From IMG/VR virus record IMGVR_UViG_3300029310_000398, positions 1 through 64,000 of that record: 64,000 nt of DNA; one strand, 5' to 3'. Shown in pieces: positions 30-26,150 of this stretch. Below the pieces are notes generated by a model. That model did not search any database, was not told the DNA's origin, and saw only the letters and a program-made list of their open reading frames with translations. The DNA is from a virus. Numbering within the stretch: the stretch's first letter is position 1; every line of letters starts with the position of its first letter. The translations under genes and the position numbers were made by a program.

Positions 30-230
30 TTGACAAAATATCAAACTGTGGTAGTATAGAATTATAATTACGAAGCTATTTTTATAAAGGAGATTTATCT
101 CCGTTTTCAAGTCACCATACGTAAATTCAGACAGTTATCCCAATCTTGGGTGGCTGTCTTTTTTTATATATTTTTATACATTTTATATGCCCATAAGTCC
201 TTTTAATAGGCAGGGAGAAAGGAGAAAAAC
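30..230 (+). promoter_or_regulatory. Promoter-leader-terminator module, copy 1 (heads cassette 1)
   Basis: -35 TTGACA 30-35, 16-nt spacer, extended -10 TGgTAGTAT 49-57. A second perfect TATAAT lies at 63-68. Small hairpin GGAGA/TCTCC 89-102. Leader hairpin AGACAG..CTGTCT 129-159 with T-run to 165. Conserved CCC..GGGAGAAAGGAGAAA block runs up to ATG 231. Confidence 0.8.
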
Positions 231-1262
231 ATGGATGTGAAATCTCTCAACGGCTCATCCGGAAGATGGAGCGATATTAGTCTGGCCGTACCATTTGATA
301 CCGGCATGGATAGAAAGATTCGTGACAAGCTGATGGATGCCGTGGCGGAAGAACTGAAAGGCAACGCCAACTGCGGCTACGACCCTTTCGGGGCAGAACG
401 CTTCGGCATCAAGCGCCATAACTGTGGCTACATTCAGAAAAATGGCAGCTACATCGTCGGTATTGGTATCCGCATTGTGATGGATACGAATTACGATTCA
501 GACGTGTCCCGCGAGATTATTCGTCAGGATATGCTTCCTGCTGTGCAGCGTGTGGCAGCACAGTTCGGCGTAAGGGCAACCGTTGTGGAACGGAATTCGC
601 AACTCTTCGATGCGGAGTTGGAGGACAAAACAATCAGGCGAAATGTTCTCATCAATCTGTTTGAGTGCAGATTTTACCGCACAGTATTCCATGACGAAGC
701 GCAAGTTCCGACCGAAAAAATCGAGTGGGATGCCTACTGCGCTCACTGTGCGACTTTGCCACGGGACGTTCCGCCAAAACGTTTGCTGAATCCGAACGAT
801 TTCGGCATCACCTTCAAGAAGGGACGATATGAGTACGAACTTGTTGGTGTCTACAAGTACCGTCCGTGGAAGTACGTTGTTGGAAAGCGAATCGGCGAAG
901 TCTCTACTGGCAAGGAAATCCTCATTCCCCGTGAGGAGATGGAGCAGATTTGCTACGAGCTGCAATGCACAGACAAGGATGCTCTGGCCTTGGAAAATGC
1001 CAAGGACGAAGAAGCCGCATTCTACCGCAACAAAGAGTATATCCAGCATCGACTTGAACGCTTTGGCATCGACATTTCCTACCGTGAGATGTACTCGTAT
1101 GACGGACATGACTTTATCATCATCGGCATCCAGCCGAAAGCCCATACCTACCCCTTCGTGGTGCGTTGTGTGGATGAGGACGGTCCGATGTCCGGTAAGG
1201 TGAGCAAGCAGCGGTTATGGAACGTTTTGGACGTGATTGCTGCGGAACGCAAAAATCAATAG
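231..1262 (+). CDS. hypothetical protein (343 aa), first gene of cassette 1
   Basis: ATG follows the conserved GGGAGAAAGGAGAAAAAC RBS block. Uninterrupted 343-codon ORF. No motif I recognise. Confidence 0.8.
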   Translation: MDVKSLNGSSGRWSDISLAVPFDTGMDRKIRDKLMDAVAEELKGNANCGYDPFGAERFGIKRHNCGYIQKNGSYIVGIGIRIVMDTNYDSDVSREIIRQDMLPAVQRVAAQFGVRATVVERNSQLFDAELEDKTIRRNVLINLFECRFYRTVFHDEAQVPTEKIEWDAYCAHCATLPRDVPPKRLLNPNDFGITFKKGRYEYELVGVYKYRPWKYVVGKRIGEVSTGKEILIPREEMEQICYELQCTDKDALALENAKDEEAAFYRNKEYIQHRLERFGIDISYREMYSYDGHDFIIIGIQPKAHTYPFVVRCVDEDGPMSGKVSKQRLWNVLDVIAAERKNQ

Positions 1263-1276
1263 AAAGGAGAATACCC

Positions 1277-1510
1277 ATGCAGACATTCTTAGGCGCTGTC
1301 AGAGGTGTTGGTGTGATGCTGTTTGTGGCGTTCCTGCTGGTCGGCTCGTTGTGGCTCGGCCTTCATCACGTCACTTTCATCGGCGAAAAGTTCAAGGGAC
1401 GTACCGGCAGCTTGCTGGCCTACCTTGCACTCATCATCATCTTTGGCGGCGGGCTGGCATTGGCGGTCATTATCTCCATCCAGTGTCCTATCAGCCCGCT
1501 TCATCAGTAG
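1277..1510 (+). CDS. small membrane protein (77 aa, two hydrophobic helices)
   Basis: ATG 1277 is preceded by AAAGGAGAATACCC; the ORF-track start at 1217 lacks an SD. The sequence MQTFLGAVRGVGVMLFVAFLLVGSLWL...LALIIIFGGGLALAVIISI is strongly hydrophobic. Confidence 0.6.
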   Translation: MQTFLGAVRGVGVMLFVAFLLVGSLWLGLHHVTFIGEKFKGRTGSLLAYLALIIIFGGGLALAVIISIQCPISPLHQ

Positions 1511-1563
1511 GAATACATTTTGTTTCCCGTAAGACCTTTAAGGCTGGGAGAAAGGAGAAAATA

Positions 1564-3585
1564 ATGAGCAGAATTCATCTGTCCTTTTTAGCCCCCGGAA
1601 AGAATTCCGGATACAAAGATACCGTAACGGACATCTACTACAAGGGTATGAATGTGGGGTACATCATTGAGGACAAAAATAACCTCCGCGATGACGCCAA
1701 GAACTATATGGCATATCGGTTCGCCCATTGCGGCACTGATTATTGGGCTCGCGGCGAGTACATCTATGGCAGCCAATCTTCTACCATCGCAGGGGCAAAG
1801 GAGAAGTTCAGAGCTTGGTTCGAACGCGACGGCGTGGGCACTTACGAGAAGTCCGCGCCCAAGGTCAGGCAGCGGCACGCCACCGCACCTGAAACTCTCA
1901 CCTCTTACGTCTGCGGTAAGGCACTCCGCATGGTGGACTGGTCTGCCGTGCGCGATGGCGACATTCTGAACCCCATTTGCGGGGACATGAGTGAGCTGCA
2001 GCTTCACGAGTGCTTCCGTCGCTTTGCTGGCTGGTACAGAAACAAAAACAAGGTCTGGCAGCACGAAAGCGCATATTACGGTGAAAAGTATTTGGATACC
2101 GTGGTAGAAGATGTTTGTGTGGCGGAAACGCTGAAGGAAGAAGGCATTCGTGTCGTCTACGACGACTTTGCAAAGTTCAACACACTGAAACCCTATCCCC
2201 TCATCATGTTCGCCCACACATCGGCGGTCTCCCCTGCTTTCGCTGCACGGTGGATTGGCAAATCTTTGACCATGCTGCGAAAATGTGGCGGTCAGCTTCT
2301 CGCCATCCTTCCCTACTCCACACTGGCTGCAGACACTTCGCTGTCTTATATGCTGGAAACGAAGAGAATCAATGCCTCTATGTTCTATGTGGAGAAGGAG
2401 TTCAAGCGTGACAGAACGAGACGGACGGCTCCTGAGTGGGTAATTATCCATGTCAACGTCAAGCCGGCGAACGCATATAGCCGGAACGAAGCGGATGTAT
2501 TGAGCGAGAATCTTACGACTTTGCGTGACTACGAGGTTCAGAAGCCGTTCCTTCCCGATTGGCGGAAGAAGTTTCCGCAGGACATCATTGAGGAGTTTGA
2601 GCTCAAGGCTCGCATTTGCAATTCCTTCATTGGCTCCTACGAAGAGGTTAAGCCCTTTATAATGAGCGGCTCCGAGTGTTACGACCAGCCCTATGTCAAA
2701 CTGGCCGTGGACGACCATCCTTGGAGGGATTCCGGCGTTGAACTTCGAATGGCGTGCTTGGAGAAGATTCGAGCACACTTTTGGAACGTTTTCATGAGCA
2801 GAGTTGCGAACACCGACTGTATGCCTGATGGACTGAAGTCCGATTATGAGCGGCTTTTTACGGAGCTGAAGGACTATGACCTCAACGACTACACGGTGAA
2901 GCGGGTACTGGAGGACATCCACAGGAAGCTGCGTAGGGGTTGCACCACTTCCCTGCTGAACCTGTTCGATAGGCTGGGGAGCATGGGAAGTAGGCAATGG
3001 TATGATGTGTACGATTACGATGCGGACACGCTATCAAGTGAGAACACCCAGAAATATTGCTCTTTCGACAAGAAACAGACCGCTGGGTTCCGTTTGGTGT
3101 TCCCGAACCTCTCCATGTATTCCTACGTCTTCGACTGTTACAGAAATGCTTTCAATCAAGGTAAAGCCGCATATGTGGTGCATGATATGGAAAGCGCTCT
3201 GCATCTTCTCAACGGTGGCAAGAATATACCTAACGCTATCGACCCGATGACTGCTGTCAACGATAATGTCACAAACGGGAAAAGCGTCGGTAAAAGTATC
3301 GCATTCACGTTCTTTACCGGTTCTTTCTATAAGAAAGGCATTCTGAAGTTGAAGTTCAAGGACTCCGCCAAACTGCTCATCGACCGGCTGAACATTTTCG
3401 TCGGTATGAAGCGCGGCTGGCTGCCTGCTGACTACGGCACCAAGCCGTATGATGCTTTGAGTAACGCTGAAAAGAAAGTCATTGACAGCTTCCAAAGCCG
3501 TGAAGAGTATGATGCAGTCGTTGCAAATCCTGATGAGTACATCATCAAGGATTTCGACATTGAGAAGCTGTTTGAAGTGCGTTAA
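1564..3585 (+). CDS. large hypothetical protein (673 aa); possible degenerate SAM-methyltransferase-like core with a DUF4942-like C-terminus
   Basis: ATG 1564 follows GGGAGAAAGGAGAAAATA; the ORF-track start at 1237 is an in-frame upstream extension. ILNPICGDMSEL resembles MTase motif I. The position where NPPF/Y is expected reads YPLIMFAHTSA. Family recall only. Confidence 0.75.
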   Translation: MSRIHLSFLAPGKNSGYKDTVTDIYYKGMNVGYIIEDKNNLRDDAKNYMAYRFAHCGTDYWARGEYIYGSQSSTIAGAKEKFRAWFERDGVGTYEKSAPKVRQRHATAPETLTSYVCGKALRMVDWSAVRDGDILNPICGDMSELQLHECFRRFAGWYRNKNKVWQHESAYYGEKYLDTVVEDVCVAETLKEEGIRVVYDDFAKFNTLKPYPLIMFAHTSAVSPAFAARWIGKSLTMLRKCGGQLLAILPYSTLAADTSLSYMLETKRINASMFYVEKEFKRDRTRRTAPEWVIIHVNVKPANAYSRNEADVLSENLTTLRDYEVQKPFLPDWRKKFPQDIIEEFELKARICNSFIGSYEEVKPFIMSGSECYDQPYVKLAVDDHPWRDSGVELRMACLEKIRAHFWNVFMSRVANTDCMPDGLKSDYERLFTELKDYDLNDYTVKRVLEDIHRKLRRGCTTSLLNLFDRLGSMGSRQWYDVYDYDADTLSSENTQKYCSFDKKQTAGFRLVFPNLSMYSYVFDCYRNAFNQGKAAYVVHDMESALHLLNGGKNIPNAIDPMTAVNDNVTNGKSVGKSIAFTFFTGSFYKKGILKLKFKDSAKLLIDRLNIFVGMKRGWLPADYGTKPYDALSNAEKKVIDSFQSREEYDAVVANPDEYIIKDFDIEKLFEVR

Positions 3586-3610: not shown

Positions 3611-3642
3611 GAAAAGCGTCCCTGACGGGGCGCTTTTCTTTT
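3611..3642 (+). terminator. intrinsic terminator closing cassette 1
   Basis: GAAAAGCGTCCC-TGAC-GGGGCGCTTTTC stem-loop with one mismatch, followed by TTTTCTTTT. Confidence 0.8.
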
Positions 3643-3654
3643 CGACTAAAACGA

Positions 3655-3855
3655 TTGACAAAATATCAAACTGTGGTAGTATAGAATTATAATCACGAAG
3701 CTATTTTTATAAAGGAGATTATCTCCGTTTTCCAAGTCACCATACGTAAATTCAGACAGTTATCCCAATCTTGGGGTAGCTGTCTTTTTTATATATTTTC
3801 ATACATTTTGAGTTCCCGTAAGTCCTTATCACAGGCAGGGAGAAAGGAGAAAACA
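3655..3855 (+). promoter_or_regulatory. Promoter-leader-terminator module, copy 2 (heads cassette 2)
   Basis: -35 at 3655-3660, TGgTAGTAT 3674-3682, TATAAT 3688-3693. Hairpin GGAGA-TTA-TCTCC 3714-3726. Leader terminator 3754-3785 with T-run to 3790. Conserved RBS block before ATG 3856. CGACTAAAA (3643-3651) abuts the -35. Confidence 0.8.
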
Positions 3856-4440
3856 ATGAGTATCACCAACACACGTCTCGCATACCTCTATCGTGACGCG
3901 GACAACTACAAGGTCCGGCATGAGGTCGTTTTCGCCGGCCAGATGTCGGAGGAAGAAAAGATGCGTATTATCGCCAGTCTCGATGACGGCGAATACTTCA
4001 TCCCCGGCCCTCTCGGTCTGAACGACGAGCGTTTCGGCAGTGAGACGGAGGCCGACCATCCCTTCTTTGAGTTTTGCTACTTTGAGGAGACCACGCATAA
4101 GCCGACGACCGACATCGCCATCGCCGAAATCGTCAAGCGGTTCGAGGACAATGCCCATCTCTGGAAGGATTACGAGACTTCCTTGGAAGACGTTGAACTC
4201 AACGAGGTAAACGACATCAAGATACCCGCACCTGACCCTGAGGAAGACCTCTCCCTTCGCGCCAAGTCCCTCCTGTTCGAAACGCTGGAGCTGTTCCGGA
4301 AGGAAATCAGCCCCAAGTTCTCTGACTGGAAGGATGCCGACGACTGGCTGTTCAGCAGCCTGAGTATCACCAAGGACGAGCTGCAGGCTATCTACGCCGA
4401 CCACGATGTGATGGTCTACGGCGAGTCTGCGGCGGATTGA
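3856..4440 (+). CDS. acidic hypothetical protein (194 aa)
   Basis: ATG 3856 follows GGAGAAAACA; the track start at 3808 reads through the leader. Very D/E-rich sequence, e.g. EDVELNEVNDIKIPAPDPEEDLS. Confidence 0.8.
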   Translation: MSITNTRLAYLYRDADNYKVRHEVVFAGQMSEEEKMRIIASLDDGEYFIPGPLGLNDERFGSETEADHPFFEFCYFEETTHKPTTDIAIAEIVKRFEDNAHLWKDYETSLEDVELNEVNDIKIPAPDPEEDLSLRAKSLLFETLELFRKEISPKFSDWKDADDWLFSSLSITKDELQAIYADHDVMVYGESAAD

Positions 4441-4449
4441 GAGGCTGCT

Positions 4450-4698
4450 ATGGGCATGGGACGAGTGCTAACATGGAAGTTTGTTATCCGCGATAGCGAT
4501 GGCTATACGCTTTGTGCTGCCCCCAAAGTATCCGGCTATGCCTACTATTGGTCAAAGCTGAACCATGATGGGGTGCATCCCCTCGTGTTCAACGATAGGG
4601 CACAGGCGCAAAGCTACCTCGATGCCATGCGTCACAACGAGCCGCGCAACCTCAGATGGAGCCAATGTCGGGTCGAAGGACCGTTCATTGATTTATAA
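4450..4698 (+). CDS. hypothetical protein (82 aa)
   Basis: GAGAGG SD lies 5 nt before the ATG. Tightly packed after the preceding gene. Confidence 0.65.
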   Translation: MGMGRVLTWKFVIRDSDGYTLCAAPKVSGYAYYWSKLNHDGVHPLVFNDRAQAQSYLDAMRHNEPRNLRWSQCRVEGPFIDL

Positions 4699-4725
4699 GG
4701 GTAAAAATTGAAAGGAGAAAAAGAT

Positions 4726-5388
4726 ATGTTCAAAATCATCAGCATCAACGAAACTCAGTTTTTCTGCAACGGCTGCGGGGAGGTATTCGTGTGGGAGTTT
4801 AACACCCCCGACAAGAAACCCCCTAAGGACTGGGATGGGCGGTACGACACCGCTTCCCTGTGCAGCATCAACGTTCCCGATTATCGTGGCGTGCCCGGAC
4901 TGTACCCCTCCGGCTTCGACACCAAGCTCGCCGAATACGATAAGGCAAAGTACGAAGCCTTCCTGAAAGGCGAATATCAGCCTCCTGTGGAAGACATGGA
5001 CTGGTACACGAAGGTGCCGCCCCTGCTGCGCTGGGGTTATTTCACCTGCTGGACCGACAGCCTGAACTTCCCCACCTACATCGCCACTGTGAACGGCCAG
5101 CCGTGTTTGCTGATTATCGCAGAGGCCGGTGAGGAGATGTCCAAAAAGGACGGAAAACGGAACGTCAGCATCCGCAAGGCGCTGATGGAGTCTGGCCGCA
5201 AGCTGGCTGAGAAGCTGAATGCGGATGAGAAGCTGAAGGAGCTGCACGCAGATGTGCTGTTCCCCAAGGACACGGATACACCGTTCTGCCAGTGGGAGCT
5301 GTACGTCGCCATCCCCGTGACAGAGAATGTCGCCTTTGAGGACATCAAGGCCGTAGCGGACGTGATGGACGAGTGCATCGACTACTGA
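4726..5388 (+). CDS. hypothetical protein (220 aa) with an N-terminal CxxC
   Basis: GAAAGGAGAAAAAGAT precedes ATG 4726. The track start at 4708 is a TTG inside the SD region. Confidence 0.75.
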   Translation: MFKIISINETQFFCNGCGEVFVWEFNTPDKKPPKDWDGRYDTASLCSINVPDYRGVPGLYPSGFDTKLAEYDKAKYEAFLKGEYQPPVEDMDWYTKVPPLLRWGYFTCWTDSLNFPTYIATVNGQPCLLIIAEAGEEMSKKDGKRNVSIRKALMESGRKLAEKLNADEKLKELHADVLFPKDTDTPFCQWELYVAIPVTENVAFEDIKAVADVMDECIDY

Positions 5389-5449
5389 TGCCCAAATGAG
5401 GGCGGGGAAGTCCCCGCCCTCTCTTGCGAAGAAGAAAGGAGAATACATT

Positions 5450-6133
5450 ATGACCTTTAAGTCTGACAGACCTGTCGGGCGGTACTGCATTGTGCCGAAT
5501 AGTTTGGTCGTGGACTACGACAAGACCATCATCTTCCGTGACCGGCGAGGTAATCCCGTGTTCACCCTGCCCAATGGCGGGAAACTGCTGATTACCGATG
5601 GGCCTCGTGCTGAACCCAAAGTCTACACCTGCCGGTTCATCGACGAGTCGCACTTCAAGCTGGCCGCAAAGGGCGAGGGTTCTTGGCCGTATCATCACGA
5701 CCAGTTCATTGAGCGTATGGAGTCCATGCGCGGCTGTACCTATCGTCCTGAAAAGTTCGACACACGGCTGGGTGTCTATCAGCGCATCTATTCTGACAGA
5801 ACCCGACTGACAGAGGAAGGAAAGCCTGTCACGTTTCGTGTCATGTTGGCACAGGAGTTTGACGACTTCGAGCGCCGCTGTTATGTGTCCTACTGCCGCA
5901 GCGAGAGCGTTGTGGCTGTGTCCACCTCTATCGTGTATCCCAAGAAAGAACGCTATAAGGAGTTCATTCCTGCAAAGGAATTTCTGGAGATGCTGCACGG
6001 TGAGCGTGCGATGTCCGAAACGCTCAACAGGATGCCGCCGTTTACTGACCTCAATATTGAGTTCATGACGGCGTTCATCACCGACAACGACGAGGTTGGT
6101 CATGTGGAACCCGCCGACGAGAAAGGAGACTGA
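5450..6133 (+). CDS. hypothetical protein (227 aa)
   Basis: GAAAGGAGAATACATT precedes ATG 5450. The track start at 5396 has no SD. Confidence 0.75.
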   Translation: MTFKSDRPVGRYCIVPNSLVVDYDKTIIFRDRRGNPVFTLPNGGKLLITDGPRAEPKVYTCRFIDESHFKLAAKGEGSWPYHHDQFIERMESMRGCTYRPEKFDTRLGVYQRIYSDRTRLTEEGKPVTFRVMLAQEFDDFERRCYVSYCRSESVVAVSTSIVYPKKERYKEFIPAKEFLEMLHGERAMSETLNRMPPFTDLNIEFMTAFITDNDEVGHVEPADEKGD

Positions 6134-6135
6134 AA

Positions 6136-7047
6136 ATGGAACGACTCACCATCCGCCTTCCTGATGGACAGGCTTGTGTTGACTGCAACCGCTGTAAGTC
6201 TGAGCGCACGGGAGAGTCTACCGATGTAAAGGAGATGTGCTCTACACTCTATTGCCGCAACCGGCTGAAAGACCGGCTGGCGGCTTTCGAGGACACTTTC
6301 CTTGACCCTGAAGAGCTGCTGACGCTCAGGCAGGAGAACGAGACCCTCCGCCGCATTCTGGGCGAGAGGTTCGGACCCGCCCCAGACGCCTCTGTACCTG
6401 AACTGGTCGGAGCCATCAGCGATAAGATGCGAGAGACAGGCGAAACCATCTACGCGCTTCGGCACGAGTTGGATGTTCTCAAGTCCACTTATCGCCCGAA
6501 CTGCGTCAACTGTGAGCACATCCACAGGGATAACTTCAACTGCACAGCCGTAGGTGGGTTCTGTACCGCTGTTCCTGCTGCCCATTGCCCGAAGCTGAAG
6601 GAGCTGATGGCTGAAAAGGCGGCGTCTCAGGAGAAACAGGCGAACGTGCCCCAAAGAGACCACAGCGAGTTTCTGGAACGTTGGGCCACAGAGCTGAACA
6701 ACAGAAACGAACGGAACGTTGTTCCTGCAGCTCTGAAGGCCGTCAAAGGCCTTGTAGTAGTCTATGCTGCGTCGGATGACCTCGTGGAAATCGAGGGCGC
6801 TATGACGCAGGAAATCGGCGCCTTTAACGGTGTTAAGCTGACTGCGAGTAAGACTCAAGGTTTCTTTGAGACAGCCGCTGGCGAGCCGGACATCGAGTTT
6901 CGTTGGTGCGATGACAACTCCGGCGACTCTGTCTGCCCGTGGTCTGTCATCTGCAACCTTCCCCATCGGAAGTTCGATATTCTCGATGATGAAGGGTATG
7001 TTTCCAGCGTTGGCATCGTACTGCATATCGACGACATTCCGGAGTAA
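6136..7047 (+). CDS. hypothetical protein (303 aa), Cys-rich N-terminus
   Basis: GAAAGGAGACTGAAA precedes the ATG. The MERLTIRLPDG..C..C..C opening followed by a short coiled segment is common in Firmicutes mobile-element proteins (recall only). Confidence 0.75.
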   Translation: MERLTIRLPDGQACVDCNRCKSERTGESTDVKEMCSTLYCRNRLKDRLAAFEDTFLDPEELLTLRQENETLRRILGERFGPAPDASVPELVGAISDKMRETGETIYALRHELDVLKSTYRPNCVNCEHIHRDNFNCTAVGGFCTAVPAAHCPKLKELMAEKAASQEKQANVPQRDHSEFLERWATELNNRNERNVVPAALKAVKGLVVVYAASDDLVEIEGAMTQEIGAFNGVKLTASKTQGFFETAAGEPDIEFRWCDDNSGDSVCPWSVICNLPHRKFDILDDEGYVSSVGIVLHIDDIPE

Positions 7048-19657: not shown

Positions 19658-19688
19658 GAAAAGCTCCTTCGGGGGCTTTTCTTTTTTT
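19658..19688 (+). terminator. intrinsic terminator closing cassette 4
   Basis: GAAAAGCTCC-TTCG-GGGGCTTTTC followed by TTTTTTT. Confidence 0.85.
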
Positions 19689-19775
19689 CTCAATTTTTGC
19701 TGAATTTGAAAGAAAGAAAACGCTCGAAAATGGCTTGGTTATGCGGTTTTCATGGACTATGTTTGTTCCTGTTCT

Positions 19776-19887
19776 CCCGACTAAAATCTCAAATTTTTAT
19801 TCGGTTTTTCCCGACTAAAGTTTAGTTCTTATAACTCTGATTTCCCGACTAAAATTGCAATTTGAAAATTCGGAAATCCCGACTAAA
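19776..19887. repeat. four direct CCCGACTAAA iterons with exact 34-bp phasing
   Basis: CCCGACTAAA occurs at 19776, 19810, 19844 and 19878. Each copy is preceded by a T/A-rich run. The array sits in a 250-bp non-coding gap just upstream of module copy 5. Confidence 0.85.
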
Positions 19888-19936
19888 ATCAAAAAACAGT
19901 GCAAATGTAATAAACGCAATTTGGTGCCTAAAATGA

Positions 19937-20115
19937 TTGACAAAATATCAAACTGTGGTAGTATAGAATTATAATTACGAAGCTATTTTTATAAAGGAGA
20001 TTATCTCCGTTTTCCAAGTCACCACATAAATTCAGACAGTTATCCCAATCTTGGGGTAGCTGTCTTTTTTTATATATTTATTGCATTTTTCGACAACAAA
20101 GAAAGGAGAAACACC
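19937..20115 (+). promoter_or_regulatory. Promoter-leader-terminator module, copy 5 (heads cassette 5)
   Basis: -35 at 19937-19942, TAGTAT 19959-19964, TATAAT 19970-19975. Small hairpin 19996-20008. Leader terminator 20034-20065 with T-run to 20071. This copy lacks the CCCGTAAG..GGGA block and has a plain GAAAGGAGAAA RBS. Confidence 0.8.
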
Positions 20116-20298
20116 ATGAAGTACAAGAAGCTCACCAAACATGAGCGAGACACGCACCCGTCCATTCACTGTACGGGCAGCGTGCGCGGCATGAAGGAAC
20201 GTGGGTTGTGGGACAAGGATGCCGAGTGTGTTCGCTGCGGCAACCACATCTACAACCTGTCCGTTACCATCCCGCCCTACCCTGCTGATGGCTGCTGA
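20116..20298 (+). CDS. hypothetical protein (60 aa)
   Basis: GAAAGGAGAAACACC precedes the ATG. Contains C..(n)..CVRCG cysteines. Confidence 0.65.
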   Translation: MKYKKLTKHERDTHPSIHCTGSVRGMKERGLWDKDAECVRCGNHIYNLSVTIPPYPADGC

Positions 20299-20331
20299 TG
20301 CAATCGACTTCAAAAGAAAGGAGAAATTATT

Positions 20332-20637
20332 ATGAATACATCTACGCTGCATTTCATCGACTGCACTCTGTCCACGTATCGGAACGAGCTGCTGTTCAAC
20401 CCTTCCAACAAGATGCCTGCCCGTGAGGTCAACGACGCACTGAGCAAGCTACTGGAGCTGCCGGAGGTCTGCGGTAAGGTGCGCGATACCCTGACCACCC
20501 ACCTGAACGACCGGCGTGGCTATGCCCGTGATTTGAGCAAGCCCGCGCCCACTGTCGCCGAGGTGATTACGTCCATGGAGTTCGCACTGGGTGCCGCATA
20601 TGCGGCAGCAATGAAGAAGAGAGGTGAGCAGAAGTGA
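20332..20637 (+). CDS. hypothetical protein (101 aa)
   Basis: GAAAGGAGAAATTATT precedes the ATG. Confidence 0.7.
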   Translation: MNTSTLHFIDCTLSTYRNELLFNPSNKMPAREVNDALSKLLELPEVCGKVRDTLTTHLNDRRGYARDLSKPAPTVAEVITSMEFALGAAYAAAMKKRGEQK

Positions 20638-20843
20638 GTAAGCATCGTTGGACTATCGAGGAACTGAAGAACGTCAATGACGCTCAGTTCGCTATGGCGA
20701 TTCTGATGGAACGCCGCAGTGAGTTATCGAATCCCTACACCCCGTTCGCACAGCGCCTTACCAGCGTCATCAATACGCTGACGGACATGGCTGTGGATGG
20801 CGGGCTGACAGACGAAGAAAGGAGTAAGAACAATGGCCGCTGA
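20634..20843 (+). CDS. hypothetical protein (69 aa); donor of the duplicated C-terminal tail
   Basis: GAGGTGAGCAGAA precedes GTG 20634. Its C-terminal 35 aa (YTPFAQRLTSV.NTLTDMAVDGGLTDEERSKNNG) recur at the end of the next gene. Confidence 0.65.
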   Translation: MSKHRWTIEELKNVNDAQFAMAILMERRSELSNPYTPFAQRLTSVINTLTDMAVDGGLTDEERSKNNGR

Positions 20844-21619
20844 AATGAGACTTTACCGCGTAACGGTTATCGGCAGCAATGCCGAAAGGAAGCGCGGAAA
20901 AGTGGTGGAAGAGGTCACAGTCAAGGTCGGAACCAAGTGGCTGACGGACGATAACGGTCGGCGTTACTACAAGGTGCCGCTTGAGGACGCAAACCGAAAC
21001 CTCTACTTCCAGCTCAACACCATGTACTGCATGGACTACCGGCTGTATCAGACAGAGCAGGCCGCCAAGGATTACCTTCGGCAAGCGGAACTGCGTGTGG
21101 CGCTTTGCAAGGCGGTGAGCAATTTCGGCTTCAACGCTCCCCTGCCTGTGCTGGAGAAGGTCATGGATACGCTGAAATACACCCCGTTCGCACAGCGTCT
21201 CACCAGCGTCTTCAATACGCTGACGGACATGGCTGTGGATGGCGGGTTGACGGACGAAGAAAGGAGCAAGAACAATGGCTGTTGAGATGAGACTCTACCG
21301 CGTGCCTATTATCGGTAGTAATGCCGAACGGCGGCACGGAAAGGTGGTGGATGAGGTCACGGTCAAGGTTGGAACCAAGTGGCTGACAGACAATAGAGAC
21401 TGTCGATACTACAAGGCTCCTTCCGAAGATGCGAACAGAAATCCCTATTTCCAGCAGAACTCCATGTACTGGAGTACAGATTACCGGCTGTATCAGACGG
21501 AACAGGCTGCCAAGGACTATCACCATCAGGCGGAATTGCTCATAGCTCTTCGCAGAGCCGTTGGCGACTTCGGCTTCAACGCCCCGTTGACCGTGCTGGA
21601 GAAGGTCATGGACACTCTC
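20736..21619 (+). repeat. tandem segmental duplication, 2 x 442 bp
   Basis: Unit 1 (20736-21177) and unit 2 (21178-about 21619) both begin TACACCCCGTTCGCACAGCG. By eye they align at roughly 85-90% identity at the ends and less in the middle. Confidence 0.8.
20833..21285 (+). CDS. hypothetical protein (150 aa), paralog A with a grafted tail
   Basis: GAAAGGAGTAAGAACA precedes the ATG. Residues 1-115 are paralogous to 21275-21643. The tail duplicates the C-terminus of 20634-20843. Confidence 0.7.
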   Translation: MAAEMRLYRVTVIGSNAERKRGKVVEEVTVKVGTKWLTDDNGRRYYKVPLEDANRNLYFQLNTMYCMDYRLYQTEQAAKDYLRQAELRVALCKAVSNFGFNAPLPVLEKVMDTLKYTPFAQRLTSVFNTLTDMAVDGGLTDEERSKNNGC

Positions 21620-21643
21620 AAGGAAGGCGGATGCTTGAAATGA
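21275..21643 (+). CDS. hypothetical protein (122 aa), paralog B
   Basis: GAAAGGAGCAAGAACA precedes the ATG. The opening MAVEMRLYRVPIIGSNAER.. parallels MAAEMRLYRVTVIGSNAER.. Confidence 0.7.
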   Translation: MAVEMRLYRVPIIGSNAERRHGKVVDEVTVKVGTKWLTDNRDCRYYKAPSEDANRNPYFQQNSMYWSTDYRLYQTEQAAKDYHHQAELLIALRRAVGDFGFNAPLTVLEKVMDTLKEGGCLK

Positions 21644-22419
21644 GTACAAAAATCTTTGACGCTTGGCGTATCAACTCTACCGACATCGGGGAGTTGGTCA
21701 AGCTCGGCAATGAGATTCGGGAAGTGCAGCAGAAGTCCTTCGTGGACGCTGTCTACAACTCGCTCGATTTCTGCCAGCTCGCTATCATCTTCGCCAAAAG
21801 GTCTGTAGAGAATGTCGAGGAACTCAGGCCTGTTTTTGCGTCAATCGCCGCGAACGTCGTTCACAAGTGTGTTCTGATGTACGACTGGACGCCGTCTTTC
21901 ACGATGACGGATAACGCCAAAAGCTCTGCGGAACAGATTCTGCAGAAGGAGGCTCAGAAACGGAAGATTTCATTGACAGTAGAGCAGAAGAAAAATTTGC
22001 TCGACGTTATCACTGAAATCTACGAAATCGTCTCCCGTGATTGGCAGGCGTCACTGCTGTTCCTCAGGGGCGATAATGGCAGTACCTACATGAAAGGGTT
22101 CAATCTCACCAGAGAAGCGACCCATTTCATCGACTCCCAATATCCCCGCTTTGAGTACACCGACCAGACGGAGATGAATATTTCAGACTTCAACGAGTAC
22201 ACACGGCAGTACATTGACGCTGCAAAGACGGAAGAAGAACGCTATGAGAGGCTCTTGGAGGCCCAGCACGAACGTGGAGAACTGTGGGACAAAGCATTCG
22301 CAGGCCAAAGTGTATGGCGCGATGCCGGTCTCTCCATCTCCCTTGTGCCGGCACAGCTTCAGGAACAGTTCGTGGCTATTCATTCCATCTGCAAAAAGGT
22401 GTTCGGTGTCGAAGCCTGA
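21631..22419 (+). CDS. hypothetical protein (262 aa)
   Basis: ATG 21631 overlaps the upstream gene end; ATG 21640 is an alternative. Long clean ORF. Confidence 0.7.
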   Translation: MLEMSTKIFDAWRINSTDIGELVKLGNEIREVQQKSFVDAVYNSLDFCQLAIIFAKRSVENVEELRPVFASIAANVVHKCVLMYDWTPSFTMTDNAKSSAEQILQKEAQKRKISLTVEQKKNLLDVITEIYEIVSRDWQASLLFLRGDNGSTYMKGFNLTREATHFIDSQYPRFEYTDQTEMNISDFNEYTRQYIDAAKTEEERYERLLEAQHERGELWDKAFAGQSVWRDAGLSISLVPAQLQEQFVAIHSICKKVFGVEA

Positions 22420-22443
22420 CGAAAAAAAGAAAGGAGAAAAATC

Positions 22444-23085
22444 ATGGAGAATAACCAAAAAAACGCTGCGGAGGTCAAGACCAGCGTCCCTGACCTGATT
22501 CCGTCCAACTACCGCGAAAAGGCAGAAGCACTGGGCTGGGTCATCGACGAGGACAAGGTCTGTGGTGTGTTCACGTTCAGGCAGTGGTCGCCTGCCGGCG
22601 AGGACTATTCCTTCGACCTGTACGCCGACGATGACTTCTGCGACGGTGTGGCTGCTGCGGTGCGCCGTGTCTACGATGACTTTGACATCGACGAACACGT
22701 TGGACTGTTCGCAGAGGCTTCTATGAGAGGTGAGTCCGGCGTTCCGAAGCTGTCGATTCTTGTCGATGACGCTAAGGAAATCGACGAGATGCTTCTCACG
22801 CTCGCCGAAGCGTTTGAAGACATCGAATCTGATACATCAGAGCGGGAGCAGAAGGCATATACCCGCTGCTGCCCCAACTGTGGTGGCGTATCTTTCTCTG
22901 GTCATCAGGTCCTCCACATTGATGTGTTGGTTGACATCGAAACGGGAGATTTCCTCGGAAATATCAACGACGAAATCGAATCTAACATCTACGAGTCGTC
23001 TGACCCCTACGGTCCATATCACTGCATGACCTGCGGATTTGAATGCGACAACCTTTCCGAGCTGGAAAAGAGCGAGGTGGAGTAA
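22444..23085 (+). CDS. acidic hypothetical protein (213 aa) with a C-terminal zinc ribbon
   Basis: GAAAGGAGAAAAATC precedes the ATG. Contains CCPNCGG....YHCMTCGFEC. Confidence 0.75.
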   Translation: MENNQKNAAEVKTSVPDLIPSNYREKAEALGWVIDEDKVCGVFTFRQWSPAGEDYSFDLYADDDFCDGVAAAVRRVYDDFDIDEHVGLFAEASMRGESGVPKLSILVDDAKEIDEMLLTLAEAFEDIESDTSEREQKAYTRCCPNCGGVSFSGHQVLHIDVLVDIETGDFLGNINDEIESNIYESSDPYGPYHCMTCGFECDNLSELEKSEVE

Positions 23086-23090
23086 CTCTA

Positions 23091-23252
23091 ATGTCGATTA
23101 TTCTTTACTTCGCACTGACCATTCTCGTGATGTGCGGCATATTCCTTGGCATAAGGAGACTGGACACACAGGACCTCTTGCCGCCAATCATCTGCAGCGT
23201 TTCTGTGGGCGTTATTATGGTGGAACTGTTCGCCCTTGTTCGGTGGTATTAA
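23091..23252 (+). CDS. small membrane protein (53 aa)
   Basis: ATG 23091 lies 6 nt after the upstream stop. Two hydrophobic segments. The track start at 23043 lies inside the previous gene. Confidence 0.5.
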   Translation: MSIILYFALTILVMCGIFLGIRRLDTQDLLPPIICSVSVGVIMVELFALVRWY

Positions 23253-23266
23253 CGGAGGTGAAGGAC

Positions 23267-23443
23267 GTGTTCAAAATGCTGACGAACCCCTTGTTTATAG
23301 CCTATGTCGTTCTTATCATCGCCGCAATGGTCGTCTCAGTCATAGCCGCAAAAAAATCAGACCAGCCAGAAATGCTTCCGGCTGCCTTTGGTACTATTGC
23401 GCTCACCATCGTTTTGGTTATTGTAGCGGTCATAACCGGTTAA
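23267..23443 (+). CDS. small membrane protein (58 aa)
   Basis: GGAGGTG lies 6 nt before GTG 23267. Two hydrophobic helices: LFIAYVVLIIAAMVVSVIAA and AAFGTIALTIVLVIVAVITG. Confidence 0.55.
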   Translation: MFKMLTNPLFIAYVVLIIAAMVVSVIAAKKSDQPEMLPAAFGTIALTIVLVIVAVITG

Positions 23444-23511
23444 ATTAAAGCCAGCGGGAGGGGCGCTCTGCCTCTCCCCTGCTTAAAAAAGAAAAGGAAG
23501 GAGATATTCGA

Positions 23512-23730
23512 ATGGCATACAGCATTGCTGAAATCGCGGCCATCAAAGCGGAGTATCCCGCAGGCACAAGAATCAGACTGAAACACATGGACGAAAGCAA
23601 GTTTCCTGTGGCAGACGGCACGACCGGTAAAGTCACTTATGTGGACGATAACGGCCAGATTCATATGCGTTGGGATAATGGCCGCACGCTGCCGCTCGTT
23701 CCGGGCGTCGATGATTTCGACAAAATCTGA
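23512..23730 (+). CDS. DUF4314-like small protein (72 aa)
   Basis: AAAGGAAGGAGATATTCGA precedes the ATG. The pattern G.R..L..M.....V..GT.G.V..VDD.GQIH..WDNG..L resembles DUF4314 of Firmicutes conjugative elements (recall only). Confidence 0.4.
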   Translation: MAYSIAEIAAIKAEYPAGTRIRLKHMDESKFPVADGTTGKVTYVDDNGQIHMRWDNGRTLPLVPGVDDFDKI

Positions 23731-23762
23731 GCTGTTTTTTTCAAAAAGAAAGGAGAAAAATT

Positions 23763-24803
23763 ATGGGTAATACATCTATCGGAGCCGCTGCATCTTTCTG
23801 CAACGAGAACACGCTGGTCAAGGTCTACCGCTATAATCCTAAGTACGACAGGTTCGAGACGACCTTCGTTCCTTTCAAGGACATCCGCAAGAGCGATTCT
23901 GTGAGCGTCTTTGCCAGTGATGGGCACGAGATGCACTTTTCCGTTCTCACAAATGCTTCTTTTAAGAAGGACGAGCGATACGGGAACGAGTGCGGTTGGT
24001 CTGTGAAAGTCACTGAGGACGGCGGCAAGACGGAGATGGTTCTTCGTCCCACCGATTTCGCGCCCTACATCATCAGCCTTTCCGTTACCGACGAAGGAGA
24101 GTGGCGCGGCTGCCGGCTGCTTTTCGAAAGCGTCCTCAACGACACCGAAGCTATCGTCAACAATATGCGGGCGCGATTCGAGCCGCGTGTTGCGCCGGAA
24201 AACACCTGCGGGCGGCATTCCGACACAGTTGCGGCCATGGCGAAGAGAGACCTTACTCGTGAGTGGACGGAGCAGTTCGGCTTCCGGCTCATTTCGGACA
24301 GCGTAAACTTCGCCCAGTGCAGTGTGAAGGACATTCTCTCTGATAAGTTCTTCAATCCCCCTGCCATGGAGTTGACGTTCTTCGCCTATTCCGACGGCGA
24401 GTATTCAGCGTCCCCCCTGTTCTTTGCCAAACTGCCCGATTTGGGCGAACGGTACAACAAGCCTGAGGGACGTGCTGCAATCGCAGAACTGCTGCAGAAG
24501 CTGGATGAGATGTACGGCGACCTGCCTGAAGACACAACAAAATGGGCTCTGGAGTATCAGCTTTGGGCTCGTATGCTGCTGGCAGAAGGTGCGGTCATGC
24601 TGAATCCGAAGCACCTCGACCTCCCCGACTGCGCCTACGAATTCAAAACGCTGGCTTTCGGTAATAAAATGCTGAAAGACAGCGGTGACGGTATTGCGTG
24701 GGCAAAGGCTGTCAAAACACCTATCAGCGTAATCGCCGAGGCGTGGGAGAATGACATGAGCGAGTCCGGCGATGAGGCTTTTACCTGCATCGTGACGGGC
24801 TGA
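23763..24803 (+). CDS. hypothetical protein (346 aa), paralog 1 of a tandem pair
   Basis: GAAAGGAGAAAAATT precedes the ATG. It shares FFAKLP.LG....PEG......L.KLDE.YGDLP..T..W.LEYQLWARMLL.EGAVMLNPK with the next gene. Confidence 0.8.
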   Translation: MGNTSIGAAASFCNENTLVKVYRYNPKYDRFETTFVPFKDIRKSDSVSVFASDGHEMHFSVLTNASFKKDERYGNECGWSVKVTEDGGKTEMVLRPTDFAPYIISLSVTDEGEWRGCRLLFESVLNDTEAIVNNMRARFEPRVAPENTCGRHSDTVAAMAKRDLTREWTEQFGFRLISDSVNFAQCSVKDILSDKFFNPPAMELTFFAYSDGEYSASPLFFAKLPDLGERYNKPEGRAAIAELLQKLDEMYGDLPEDTTKWALEYQLWARMLLAEGAVMLNPKHLDLPDCAYEFKTLAFGNKMLKDSGDGIAWAKAVKTPISVIAEAWENDMSESGDEAFTCIVTG

Positions 24804-24817
24804 AAGGAGAAAAACAT

Positions 24818-25870
24818 ATGGATATGCCGATTTCGAACAAGCGAAAGCTGCACTGCGACGAGAACGTACTGGTCCACATTGTGCGCTACTGCCATGATAC
24901 GGATGACGCAGATGGCGACGGCGTCAGAGAGGTGGAAATGTACGTCCCCTTCAAGCACATTTGCAAGGGCGATGCCATTGATATTCCTGATAAGGACACC
25001 GACGATGCCTTCAGAACAACCGCCTATGCTGCGGAAGACGCTTCGTACAACGAGGCTAAGGCGGGTGGTTGGTTTGTGCCGGTCGCCTGCACTGGGCAGA
25101 AAGATTACATTCTGAAGCCCGACGATTTCGCACCTTGGCTCGTGACACTGAGCGTTGTGTTCACGAACGGGTCGTCCTGCAAGCTCTTTTTCGAGTGCGT
25201 GGAACGAAGCGAAGAGAAGCTGCGGGCAAACATCCGCAGAATCTTTGACGATGTGCCGACGCTGCGGCATGAGATGGGCTTCGTTGCCCTCGTCCGCCAT
25301 ATGGCATGGAAGTACCTCACACCGGAAAGAACGGAGCCTCTCGGCTTCAGATTCCTTTCGGATGATGTCGTCTGGAGCAACTGCAAAGTGAAGGACATCC
25401 TTCCTGACCGGTTCTTCGCGGCGGCTGACATGAAGCTGACGTTTTACGCCTATGCGGAAGATGAGTATTCTGGGAATCCTCTGTTCTTTGCAAAGCTGCC
25501 GTATCTCGGTACGCATCACGGACATCCTGAAGGTTGTGTGATTTGCGCTTCCATCCTGCGGAAACTGGATGAGCTGTATGGCGACCTGCCGACGGAAACG
25601 TCCCGTTGGTCGCTGGAATACCAGCTCTGGGCGCGTATGCTGCTCTCTGAGGGAGCAGTTATGCTCAATCCGAAGTACATTGACTTGCGCCAAGACGGTG
25701 CGCTTGATGCGCTTCTGGAGGACATTCCGATGATTGATGGTTTCGCCGATGACGTCGCTTGGCGTCGTGTGGCAGGTGTACCCATCGACGAAATCCATGA
25801 AGTGTGGGATGCGAGTTCGGATGATGGTGTCGCTCCGTTCACCTATACCGTCCGAGCAAAAATCCTTTGA
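24818..25870 (+). CDS. hypothetical protein (350 aa), paralog 2
   Basis: GAAAGGAGAAAAACAT precedes the ATG. Collinear similarity to 23763-24803. Confidence 0.8.
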   Translation: MDMPISNKRKLHCDENVLVHIVRYCHDTDDADGDGVREVEMYVPFKHICKGDAIDIPDKDTDDAFRTTAYAAEDASYNEAKAGGWFVPVACTGQKDYILKPDDFAPWLVTLSVVFTNGSSCKLFFECVERSEEKLRANIRRIFDDVPTLRHEMGFVALVRHMAWKYLTPERTEPLGFRFLSDDVVWSNCKVKDILPDRFFAAADMKLTFYAYAEDEYSGNPLFFAKLPYLGTHHGHPEGCVICASILRKLDELYGDLPTETSRWSLEYQLWARMLLSEGAVMLNPKYIDLRQDGALDALLEDIPMIDGFADDVAWRRVAGVPIDEIHEVWDASSDDGVAPFTYTVRAKIL

Positions 25871-25902
25871 TTCTTTCGCTTCAAGACAAACCACATTTTT
25901 TC

Positions 25903-25933
25903 AAAAGAAGCTCCTTCGGGAGCTTCTTTTTTT
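25903..25933 (+). terminator. intrinsic terminator closing cassette 5
   Basis: AAAAGAAGCTCC-TTCG-GGAGCTTCTTTT perfect stem followed by TTT. Confidence 0.85.
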
Positions 25934-25946
25934 GCGCCAAAAGGAA

Positions 25947-26150
25947 TTGACAAAATATCAAACTGTGGTAGTATAGAATTATAATTACGAAGCTATTTTT
26001 ATAAAGGAGATTATCTCCGTTTTCAAGTCACCACAAAGAATCAAGACAGTTACTTCCCTTTTCTGGGAAGTGACTGTCTTTTTCTATATATAACATTTTT
26101 TGGATTCCCGTAAGTCCTTATTACAGGCTGGGAGAAAGGAGAAAAAGACC
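25947..26150 (+). promoter_or_regulatory. Promoter-leader-terminator module, copy 6 (heads cassette 6)
   Basis: -35 at 25947-25952, TAGTAT 25969-25974, TATAAT 25980-25985. Small hairpin 26006-26018. Leader terminator 26044-26079 has a rebuilt 15-bp stem (AGACAGTTACTTCCC/GGGAAGTGACTGTCT), with T-run to 26084. RBS block before ATG 26151. Confidence 0.8.

Follow-up and report, generated by a model that had tools for sequence, protein, structure and literature searches.

The 64,000-nucleotide stretch analyzed here (the window; positions 1 to 64,000 of IMG/VR virus record IMGVR_UViG_3300029310_000398) is part of an element of about 175–190 kb from human-gut metagenomes and harbors six copies of a module of approximately 140 bp. 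In each copy, a strong promoter runs through a leader of about 100 nt into a strong terminator, and the whole unit is positioned ahead of every gene cassette. We tentatively propose that the module may act as a promoter-proximal termination gate which would be opened by an element-specific antitermination factor.

A repeat search of the window yielded one family of six direct repeats of 175 nt each (9–183, 3634–3808, 8684–8858, 13841–14015, 19916–20090, and 25926–26100). The 33-nt core TTGACAAAATATCAAACTGTGGTAGTATAGAAT had six exact matches at positions 30, 3655, 8705, 13862, 19937, and 25947, all on the plus strand and none elsewhere in the 64 kb, compared to 0 expected from shuffled sequences. 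In a six-way alignment, about 87 bp were invariant across the module copies save one substitution and 1-nt indels. The copies are arranged as follows.

30 to 166, plus strand: module copy 1, comprising -35, -10, leader, terminator hairpin (129–159), and T-run (160–166).
3655 to 3791, plus strand: module copy 2, terminator hairpin at 3754–3785.
8705 to 8842, plus strand: module copy 3, terminator hairpin at 8802–8835.
13862 to 13998, plus strand: module copy 4, terminator hairpin at 13961–13992, loop and upper stem altered with compensation.
19937 to 20072, plus strand: module copy 5, terminator hairpin at 20034–20065, no shared translation-initiation element, four 11-bp repeats upstream.
25947 to 26085, plus strand: module copy 6, terminator hairpin at 26043–26080 with 16 pairs, a different and fully compensated upper stem.

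A covariance model of the module (R1), trained on 35 unique copies, assigned 118–131 bits to the six copies and 22.6 bits to the next match in the window. The latter (49482–49581) is an unrelated AT-rich promoter-like stretch with a terminator (AAGGAGAGCAACC..GGAUUGCUCUCCUUUUUU); the 48–52 kb region of the window is an island of low G+C content (0.42–0.47 compared to about 0.52).

The signals within a module are given below for copy 1.

30 to 35, plus strand: -35 hexamer TTGACA.
49 to 57, plus strand: TGn and -10 hexamer TAGTAT.
63 to 68, plus strand: second, perfect TATAAT.
About 64, plus strand: inferred transcription start.
89 to 102, plus strand: small hairpin GGAGA-UUA-UCUCC.
129 to 159, plus strand: terminator hairpin, followed by the U-run (160–166) and AUAUAU.

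By consensus scan, every copy has the promoter TTGACA-16-TAGTAT with an upstream TG, scoring 10 of 12, which identifies it as a sigmaA/sigma70-type promoter. The leader is almost invariant to about +57. It includes ACGAAGCUAU, RGAAG(N)UAU as a motif between about +10 and +20 of the predicted transcript, and the small GGAGA/UCUCC hairpin, the 5' arm of which resembles a Shine-Dalgarno (SD) sequence while the 3' arm runs on as UCUCCGUUUUCC. A variable linker of about 10–12 nt joins the invariant part to the terminator. All six copies possess a terminator-like hairpin of 12–16 pairs with T5–7 in the consensus scan and thus qualify as predicted intrinsic terminators. Folding energies of the leaders of about 105 nt lie between -25 and -36 kcal/mol (z between -4.0 and -7.0), a level that none of 200 shuffled sequences attained. 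The ribosome-binding site (RBS) of the first gene follows the T-run at a distance of about 55–65 nt in all copies, and no promoter-like site was called by the scan between terminator and first gene in the window.

These results bear on the first-pass annotation of this DNA in several respects. Its six co-oriented copies and their positions are borne out by the repeat search and by the six exact core matches. The order that it had proposed, i.e., promoter, leader of about 100 nt, intrinsic terminator, and RBS of a co-oriented cassette, holds by sequence signals in the copies examined, and its predicted RNA 3' ends at 165, 3790, 8840, 13997, 20071, and 26084 fit the called hairpins and T-runs. 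The suggested logic, according to which a short RNA would be made by default and the cargo would require read-through, is upheld as a prediction from the layout of promoter and terminator. Each module had also been placed directly after the terminator of the preceding cassette. This is correct for copies 2, 3, 4, and 6 and for the truncated left edge of copy 1 (G+C-rich hairpin and T-run), but not for copy 5, which is separated by about 250 bp from the upstream terminator (19656–19683). Finally, the count of six is accurate for the window but understates the scale, as there are 13 copies per element over about 96 kb, homologues in several plasmid lineages, and recombination junctions at the modules. 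The gap before module 5 (19775–19887) holds four exact copies of the 11-bp repeat TCCCGACTAAA in a strict 34-bp period (0.78 matches expected). These repeats resemble iterons, a centromere, or a regulator-binding array and are missing from the orthologous place in the related type B plasmids.

Sequence variation among the modules was examined within and between lineages. Among 88 type-A copies (52 unique), changes occurred only in four positions of the promoter spacer, in the linker, and in the loop and upper stem of the terminator. In type B plasmids, which were reached via the adhesin and the VWA protein, the module is 78–84% identical. Common to A and B are the -35 hexamer, TGnTAGTAT, the second TATAAT, TACGAAG, UAUUUUUAUAA(A)GGAG, UAUCUCCGUUUU, C(A)AGUCAC, the stem base GACAG/CUGUC, and the U-run. 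Lineages A, B, and D retain the -35 hexamer and TGnTAG(T/G)AT despite a variable spacer. Neither the promoter spacer nor the upstream flank is conserved, and the variability of the spacer argues against a Q-type site or an operator at this position. The GGAG..CUCC element has loops of 3 or 4 nt with varied sequence, which fits an RNA hairpin and not a dimeric DNA operator.

RNAalifold analysis of 35 unique leaders returned solely the terminator, with 13 pairs, 8 of which displayed double compensatory changes; the 5-bp hairpin was also obtained in lineage A. An intact hairpin was present in all 50 unique leaders (-18 to -29 kcal/mol), and the terminator paralogs of lineages D and E compensate as well. 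We concluded that the predicted terminator hairpin is under structural selection. Its upper stem moves with the cassette, since copy 6 and its type-B ortholog have CUUCCC..GGGAAG in common. Promoter and leader are 98.9% identical among the six paralogs and 87.6% identical between lineages A and B. For comparison, the DNA of the adjacent AAA gene is 78.8% identical between A and B, and linker plus terminator 74–83%. The leader thus exceeds coding DNA in conservation between lineages and is near-identical within a lineage, which argues for purifying selection on the 5' part together with homogenization inside the lineage.

At least six related lineages have diverged homologues of the module. Homologues of the cassette-6 ATPase led to distant elements, two of them at 37–38% protein identity (lineages F and G). 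In these two elements, one promoter-leader-terminator unit heads an operon encoding AAA, VWA, ERF, primase, TrbC pilin, VirB4-like, and M23 peptidase proteins, that is, a type IV secretion system (T4SS) operon.

L098, 9739 to 9880, strand not stated: single module, TTGACA-17-TATACT with TG, leader of about 65 nt, AAGACAGUCUUUACUCAAUGAGUGAAGGCUGUCUU and then U7.
L105, 4571 to 4712, strand not stated: single module heading the T4SS operon.

The terminator base AGACAG/CUGUCU-U5–7-AUAUAU is common to the modules and to these single-copy operon heads, with the U5–7 followed by AUAUAU in lineages other than G and by AUUU in G. In lineage D (L121), two copies flank an AAA-VWA cassette; lineage E (L122, L123) likewise has two copies, which display compensatory terminator changes, and lineage C contigs end inside the module. 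On the diverged lineages, model R1 scored 25–30 bits (E-values of 0.01–0.08 in 350 kb) exactly at the sites found by eye. All lineages have a leader of 60–70 nt with a modest hairpin and a perfect terminator of 15–17 bp. A sigmaA-type promoter is clear in lineages A, B, D, F, and G and not evident in E, and RGAAG(N)UAU occurs 13–16 nt past the -10 in all lineages but G. Lineages A and B conserve the second TATAAT, located at about +1 to +6, and D and F do so in part, but it is not kept by E and G. Nothing passed in an Rfam search of five related loci, and a scan for the type-C leader pattern gave 0 matches. Chromosomal AAA-VWA homologues of Lachnospiraceae (L102–L104) were rejected as further carriers; they lie outside mobile elements, and a covariance search including L102 and L103 gave no match.

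A second shared element was identified between module and first gene by repeat families and pattern scan.

190 to 230, plus strand: translation-initiation element CCCRTAAGNCCTY..AGGCWGGGAGAAAGGAG before the first gene of cassette 1.
3815 to 3855, 8866 to 8903, 14021 to 14061, and 26107 to 26150, plus strand: further translation-initiation elements.
1526 to 1563, plus strand: translation-initiation element of an internal gene.

With 6 matches compared to 0.87 expected, this element precedes five of the six first genes and one internal gene. The arrangement CCCRTAAGNCCTY, a loop of variable length, and AGGCWGGGAGAAAGGAG could form a small hairpin (CCU/AGG, CCC/GGG) that ends in a double SD sequence. 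Lineages B, C, and D keep this element too, and part of it is complementary to the module leader. The predicted duplex between UCUCCGUUUUCC of the leader and GGGAGAAAGGAGA of the RBS region has -19 to -23.5 kcal/mol for five of the six first genes and the internal gene. Shuffled leaders gave -12.8 ± 3.2 kcal/mol against the RBS region, and 4% of the shuffles attained the observed value. Copy 5 lacks the complementary region and reached -10.5 kcal/mol.

To compare the surroundings of the modules, we clustered the 400 bp upstream and the 400 bp downstream of 121 module copies. One and the same downstream cassette (d) met different upstream cassettes (u) among the contigs: d6 occurred with u1, u6, u10, and u13, d4 with u4 and u8, d7 with u7 and u12, d11 with u4 and u6, and d1 with u1 and u11. 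This re-joining of the same cassette to varied neighbors indicates that the modules and the translation-initiation element are recombination junctions. At the junction in L019, the module bears the terminator type of the deleted cassette, and the crossover therefore appears to have fallen in the downstream translation-initiation element. All cassettes are co-oriented. Judging from these junctions, the near-identical heads and the translation-initiation element are sites of homologous recombination for loss, gain, and reordering of cassettes between plasmid variants. As a reiterated composite motif at the boundaries of variable cassettes and at recombination junctions, the module resembles the promoter-early stem-loop (PeSL) motifs of T4-type phages; the analogy is functional, without homology, and the order of the parts differs.

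We then compared the module with known families and devices. Among Rfam families at gathering thresholds, tRNA-Ser alone passed in the window, and a permissive search on the module gave at best 9–16 bits (E ≥ 1.5). The literature search yielded no description of such a module. The first-pass annotation did not know the motif from any described system, and no match to an Rfam family, insertion sequence (IS) end, or att site was obtained here.

A number of candidate functions were rejected. A riboswitch, T-box, or protein-type attenuator would require an alternative fold, and in the RNAalifold analysis no conserved leader segment pairs with a terminator strand. An alternative antiterminator fold is unlikely, since a variable linker lies between the invariant leader and the terminator, the stem of which covaries freely. 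With regard to a leader peptide, no ATG, GTG, or TTG follows the SD-like AAAGGAG, and the sole long frame (from AUU) is disrupted by linker indels between copies. An antisense promoter-like site, TTTATA-16-TATAAT (88 to 61, lineage A), is weaker in lineage B, and its start would fall upstream of the sense start without transcript overlap. The best antisense match of the leader within the window comprised 12–13 nt, which is at chance level, and none reached 14 nt. Countertranscript attenuation is unlikely, given that the sense RNA and the antisense site would not overlap and that both an antisense target in the window and an alternative fold are lacking. The heptamer TTATCCC within the lineage-A terminator stem matches the operator of Reg576 from Bacillus pumilus plasmid p576 (PMC6294495). 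We take this as coincidence because it is not conserved in copy 6 or in lineage B. No long hairpin restores -35 and -10 as in a single-strand (Frpo-like) promoter. The array is no integron, as none of the cassettes is promoterless and the direct repeats, of about 140–175 bp, are not attC-like imperfect palindromes; moreover, no tyrosine recombinase lies beside the array. Nor are the copies IS ends or att sites; they are direct, without an inverted partner, and no transposase adjoins them (IscB and TnpB occur elsewhere).

According to the gate that we tentatively propose, the transcript would begin at the strong housekeeping-sigma promoter (TTGACA, 16 bp, TGn-TAGTAT), and its first 57 nt or so, which are almost invariant, would present RGAAG(N)UAU and the small GGAG/CUCC hairpin. 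After the variable linker of about 10 nt, the polymerase would meet the long-stem intrinsic terminator (13–16 bp), stop there by default, and release an RNA of about 100 nt. The cassette of 3.4–7.6 kb would be transcribed only upon read-through of the polymerase. A putative element-specific factor, presumably responding to an inducing signal, would read the conserved 5' leader and modify the elongation complex, as N/nut, Q, LoaP, or conAn do, without refolding of the leader. All 13 cassettes would be switched jointly, and in the smaller relatives the same device would switch the T4SS operon. The first-pass annotation had offered two readings, a regulon under one element-encoded antiterminator or six copies of a small-RNA gene of roughly 100 nt, and our gate falls under the former. 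We prefer this reading because a conjugation operon behind a perfect 16-bp terminator requires a switch, because conjugation operons of Gram-positive bacteria are typically opened by antitermination, as demonstrated for conAn (PMC8191782) and canT of Tn916 (PMC11658703), and because leaders that are lineage-specific and uniform within an element are the prediction for a co-evolving trans-factor. It is further favored by the canonical promoter and terminator signals and the compensated hairpin, by the lack of room for an alternative fold, and by the lack of a promoter-like site between terminator and first gene.

Several observations weigh against such a gate. The unconserved promoter spacer speaks against a binding site of the lambda Q type, and the A+U-rich leader with its hairpin of only 4–5 bp does not resemble put, EAR, and conAn2, which are self-sufficient antiterminator RNAs. 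An element-encoded NusG paralog (KOW) or Q-like antiterminator, which the first-pass annotation had envisaged, was not recognized in the element DNA examined. A phmmer --max search of about 660 kb of element DNA, covering all but about 20 kb of the 190-kb contig, with approximate sequences of RfaH, E. coli NusG, and B. subtilis NusG as queries, returned no NusG/KOW paralog (best E 0.84–1.8). KOW/NGN and PF17362 (ConAn1) are not among the Pfam matches listed for about 100 open reading frames (ORFs) of window and backbone and 148 further ORFs, the list for one ORF set giving 25 of 46 families. In Pfam, PHROGs, PADLOC, and NCBIfam scans of cassette and backbone ORFs, we found no regulator tied to the modules. 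The only regulator-like ORFs seen, HTH_3/RstR-like proteins in cassettes 3 and 4 and a 305-aa sigma-r4/YlxM-like helix-turn-helix protein (44432–45349, minus strand), are not linked to them. In pLS20 of B. subtilis, stems above 14 bp resist conAn antitermination, while those of ordinary terminators average 9 ± 2 bp. By analogy, the module stems of 13–17 bp may fall into the length class that resists conAn. Processive read-through would, moreover, also pass the cassette-end terminators and render 13 separate promoters partly redundant. A wider version of the proposal appears doubtful to us. In that version, roughly half of the genome (about 96 kb with at least 13 exchangeable cassettes; the T4SS operon in smaller relatives) would form one regulon under a previously undescribed leader (RGAAGNUAU, mini-hairpin, and long-stem terminator) and a new lineage-specific factor outside the NusG paralogs, Q, N, and ConAn1, and the heads would double as an integrase-free, homology-driven platform for cassette exchange.

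Three other explanations were weighed against the termination gate. It is unlikely, in our estimate, that the modules are 13 copies of a small-RNA (sRNA) gene with the RNA of about 100 nt as the product and cassette expression as leak. A strong promoter leading straight into a long-stem terminator is the standard layout of an sRNA gene, stems of 13–17 bp would terminate very efficiently and may resist antitermination, and thirteen identical copies would provide a high dosage. Such an RNA might pair through UCUCCGUUUUCC with the purine-rich GGGAGAAAGGAGA of the cassette RBS regions and repress translation or sponge ribosomes, in line with duplex energies stronger than the mean of the shuffles and with a translation-initiation element that is conserved beyond the needs of an SD sequence. 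However, this complementarity is marginal (p about 0.04 in one test), a strong SD sequence will pair with any C/U-rich stretch, copy 5 lacks the complementary region, and the window holds no extended antisense target. Among A/B, D, E, F, and G the leader is unconserved save the short motif, which makes a common target unlikely, and the single copy in F and G exactly heads the T4SS operon, which is necessarily expressed through the module.

Also improbable is a fixed attenuator or insulator without a dedicated regulator. Here, a small constant leak would keep toxic-prone cargo (MazF, Zeta, Fic) low, gene conversion would keep the heads alike, and the main evolutionary role would be that of portable recombination sites, a plasmid analogue of the PeSLs of T4-type phages. 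The re-joined cassettes, the assemblies that break within modules, the toxin-like genes of the cassettes, and the lack of a regulator in our searches are in accordance with this explanation, as are the identities of 98.9% within and 87.6% between lineages, which are a signature of concerted evolution. PeSLs, which combine a terminator with a promoter, give rise to indels and swaps through homologous recombination (PMC4122927). Yet recombination requires homology alone and accounts neither for the order of promoter and then terminator nor for a compensated hairpin across seven lineages. The leader outscores coding DNA in conservation between lineages, which points to selection on the sequence and not mere homogenization, and a conjugation operon behind a fixed strong terminator would be throttled permanently. 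We consider it very improbable that the module acts at the DNA level, be it as an array of operators bound by a plasmid repressor, with zygotic induction as for Reg576, as the priming site or single-strand promoter of a leading region, or as an att site or IS end. The establishment genes of p576 provide a precedent for one repressor acting on reiterated, near-identical promoters (PMC6294495), the cargo resembles the accessory and anti-defence content of leading regions with cassettes co-oriented, and the leader DNA has three short palindromes (ATTATAAT, TTTATAAA, and GGAGA..TCTCC). Against this stand the unconserved promoter spacer and upstream flank, the half-site spacing of GGAGA/TCTCC that varies between 3 and 4 nt, and the lack of a long hairpin by which single-stranded DNA could restore a double-stranded promoter. 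Terminal inverted repeats, target duplications, and an adjacent recombinase are all absent, as are Rfam and IS matches, and a repressor at the promoter would leave the selected terminator unexplained.

The cassettes behind the modules of the window span 3.4–7.6 kb, and the hairpin scan located a terminator at their ends.

231 to 3585, plus strand: cassette 1, unknown 343-aa protein and DUF4942 protein.
3856 to 8656, plus strand: cassette 2, seven ORFs, the last a MazF/PemK-like toxin; end terminator at 8662–8689.
8904 to 13592, plus strand: cassette 3, ORFs including an HTH_3/RstR-like and a Zeta-toxin-like protein.
14062 to 19621, plus strand: cassette 4, nine ORFs, one HTH_3 protein.
20116 to 25870, plus strand: cassette 5, small Cys-rich first ORF, tandem ProQ_C-like ORF pair, unknowns.
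26151 to 33790, plus strand: cassette 6, AAA_5-like ATPase, DUF3232, VWA protein, Zn-ribbon, Fic/SoFic-like, HD.
8662 to 8689, plus strand: cassette-end terminator, 12 pairs and T-run, directly before the next module.
About 3611 to 3638, 13819 to 13842, 19656 to 19683, about 25903 to 25930, and 33794 to 33823, plus strand: other cassette-end terminators.

Most cassette genes have no Pfam match, the exceptions being DUF4942, MazF, Zeta toxin, two HTH_3, AAA_5/DUF3232/VWA, Fic (SoFic in PADLOC), and HD. The AAA-VWA pair of cassette 6 is the cassette found behind the homologous module in distant conjugative elements. In cassette 5, a tandem duplication at 20736–21621 (repeat pairs of 294 nt and 143 nt, 77–83% identical) gave rise to two paralogous ORFs with weak ProQ C-terminal-like matches (E about 2e-3). 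The right half of the window encodes topoisomerase III, thioester/TQ-domain adhesins, a Band7 protein, a non-specific nuclease, and tRNA-Ser. Giant surface proteins with thioester, SpaA, and up to 11 T-Q ester-bond domains are encoded at 52469–58099 and 59881–63945 (both minus strand) and at 4148–15553 of L078. Their ortholog in the 190-kb contig has 3801 aa, and such proteins are typical of Gram-positive conjugation and adhesion.

The element as a whole carries genes for partition, replication, relaxase, T4SS ATPase, and giant adhesins. Contig 3300045988_183936 (190,756 bp) harbors 13 modules on a single strand, at about 3980–22112 and 127032–188849. The window is contiguous across the ends of this contig, which argues for a circular molecule with an array spanning about 96 kb. 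The backbone comprises ParA/ParB and the 3801-aa adhesin, a TraG/VirB4-type ATPase, a RepL/LexA-like replication helix-turn-helix protein, a DnaG zinc ribbon, an N6-methylase, and a tip pilin; a MobA/VirD2 relaxase domain is encoded on a 15-kb metagenome contig that also bears a module. From this gene content we conclude that the element is a conjugative megaplasmid, or possibly an integrative element, and not a phage despite its listing in IMG/VR. The carriers are plasmids of uncultured human-gut Firmicutes (Clostridia). Exact-pattern scans detected the module in IMG/VR contigs of 54–191 kb and also in metagenome contigs, most of them from human gut, where it was present in 27 stretches. Two exact patterns of the module gave 0 matches in GTDB representative genomes, and megablast with the window returned no known phage or plasmid.

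Many short-read contigs from metagenomes and Logan, among them L048, L059, L060, L065, L066, L097, and L100, start or stop within the module or the translation-initiation element (contig positions 1–63). The module repeats break assemblies of these plasmids, and surveys based on metagenome-assembled genomes therefore probably under-report them. In type-A contigs L043 (8200–10035, minus strand), L044, and L045, a copy of the module promoter, identical through TAGTATAGAA, occurs without leader and terminator. It precedes a structured 5' region of about 340 nt and a gene for a 494-aa IscB (PLMP N-terminus; RRXRR PF14239, E 1e-49). This unit, which is not present in the window, resembles an omega-RNA/IscB pair expressed from the standard promoter of the plasmid. 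TnpB (OrfB_IS605) lies about 7 kb from it, and the unit sits roughly where the window has its 48–52 kb island of low G+C content. In L057 (OLSQ01000054.1), positions 12536–13021 hold the 3' half of a SigF/SigG-like sporulation sigma gene that starts abruptly (MIVGEIRRYLRDN...), with a jump in G+C content at the 5' edge, about 6 kb downstream of a module. The element or a neighboring insert may interrupt the sporulation sigma gene in OLSQ01000054.1, as skin-type intervening elements do, and the split gene may point to a spore-forming host of about 60% G+C.

If the proposed gate is true, it would represent a new antitermination/attenuation system over conjugation and a very large accessory load in abundant plasmids of uncultured gut Firmicutes, and a compact, portable 140-bp expression head that is off by default and possibly of use in Clostridia engineering. 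Independent of the mechanism, the heads are a plasmid counterpart of phage PeSLs that shuffle cassettes of 3–8 kb with mostly unknown genes, some of them toxin- or anti-defence-like. Gene flux of this kind escapes annotation as integron or IS. The motif, as captured in model R1, is a ready marker for such elements and a means to account for their fragmented assemblies.

Among known systems, lambda PR'-qut-tR' with Q (6S RNA) shares the strong constitutive promoter, a strong terminator within 100–200 nt, and, by prediction for the module, a short default RNA and a long unit transcribed after modification of the polymerase. In lambda, a sigma-dependent pause element occupies the region of about +1 to +6, and lineages A and B have the perfect -10-like TATAAT at this place. 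However, no Q homolog was recognized in the element, the -35/-10 spacer that would hold the Q site is unconserved, and the second TATAAT is not kept in E and G. There are 13 copies instead of one, on a Firmicutes plasmid and not a phage. The lambda N/nut system and rrn leaders likewise have a short linear motif and a small hairpin in the 5' leader before terminators, with lineage-specific recognition, as by the N proteins of different lambdoid phages, and repeated sites (nutL, nutR). No N-like protein was recognized, though; the loop of the module hairpin is unconserved whereas the boxB loop is the contact for N, and the likeness to boxA is by eye only. LoaP, a NusG paralog acting on Firmicutes antibiotic and polysaccharide clusters, RfaH-ops, and UpxY share the order of promoter, short conserved leader element (a hairpin for LoaP, the 12-nt ops for RfaH), intrinsic terminator, and long operon. 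In Bacteroides, UpxY proteins serve eight loci with one type of 5' untranslated region per locus. Here, in contrast, an NGN/KOW protein was not found, RGAAGNUAU is unlike ops, and 13 near-identical targets are unusual. In prgQ/IRS1/Anti-Q of pCF10, a conjugation promoter feeds a terminator, the short RNA is the default, and read-through turns conjugation on. That system requires a countertranscript overlapping the leader and alternative folds, whereas the antisense site of the module is non-overlapping and no alternative fold is conserved.

In the conAn and canT systems, terminators guard a Gram-positive conjugation operon and an antitermination device encoded by the element opens it from the operon head; in lineages F and G the module likewise sits at the head of the T4SS operon. 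The two systems are single-copy and cis-acting, and the module terminators belong to the long-stem class that resists conAn. The leader is also not of the conAn2 kind, which comprises 260–600 nt after the conAn1 gene (PMC8191782), with a GC-rich box and stem-loops ahead of the first terminator, compared to an A+U-rich leader of 57–70 nt before the module terminator. PeSLs of T4-type phages (PMC2839356, PMC4122927) are reiterated composite promoter/terminator units between variable ORF cassettes and points of homologous recombination. Their order of terminator and then promoter is that of an ordinary gene boundary, whereas the module has promoter, leader, and terminator with its own transcript stopped, and it resides on a Firmicutes plasmid without sequence relation. 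Like Reg576 of p576 (PMC6294495) and leading-region anti-defence islands (PMC11541004), the array has several similar sigmaA promoters that head accessory or establishment operons with co-oriented, mostly unknown cargo. Reg576, however, is a repressor at promoter-flanking operators without a leader terminator, whereas the module conserves the transcribed leader and the terminator while flanks and spacer vary. Taken together, the module resembles lambda Q, N/nut, LoaP/RfaH, conAn/canT, and prgQ-IRS1 and has the defining features of none of them. Its 13-fold reiteration is unusual for a promoter-proximal terminator gate; it covers about 96 kb and would have a dual regulatory and recombinational role.

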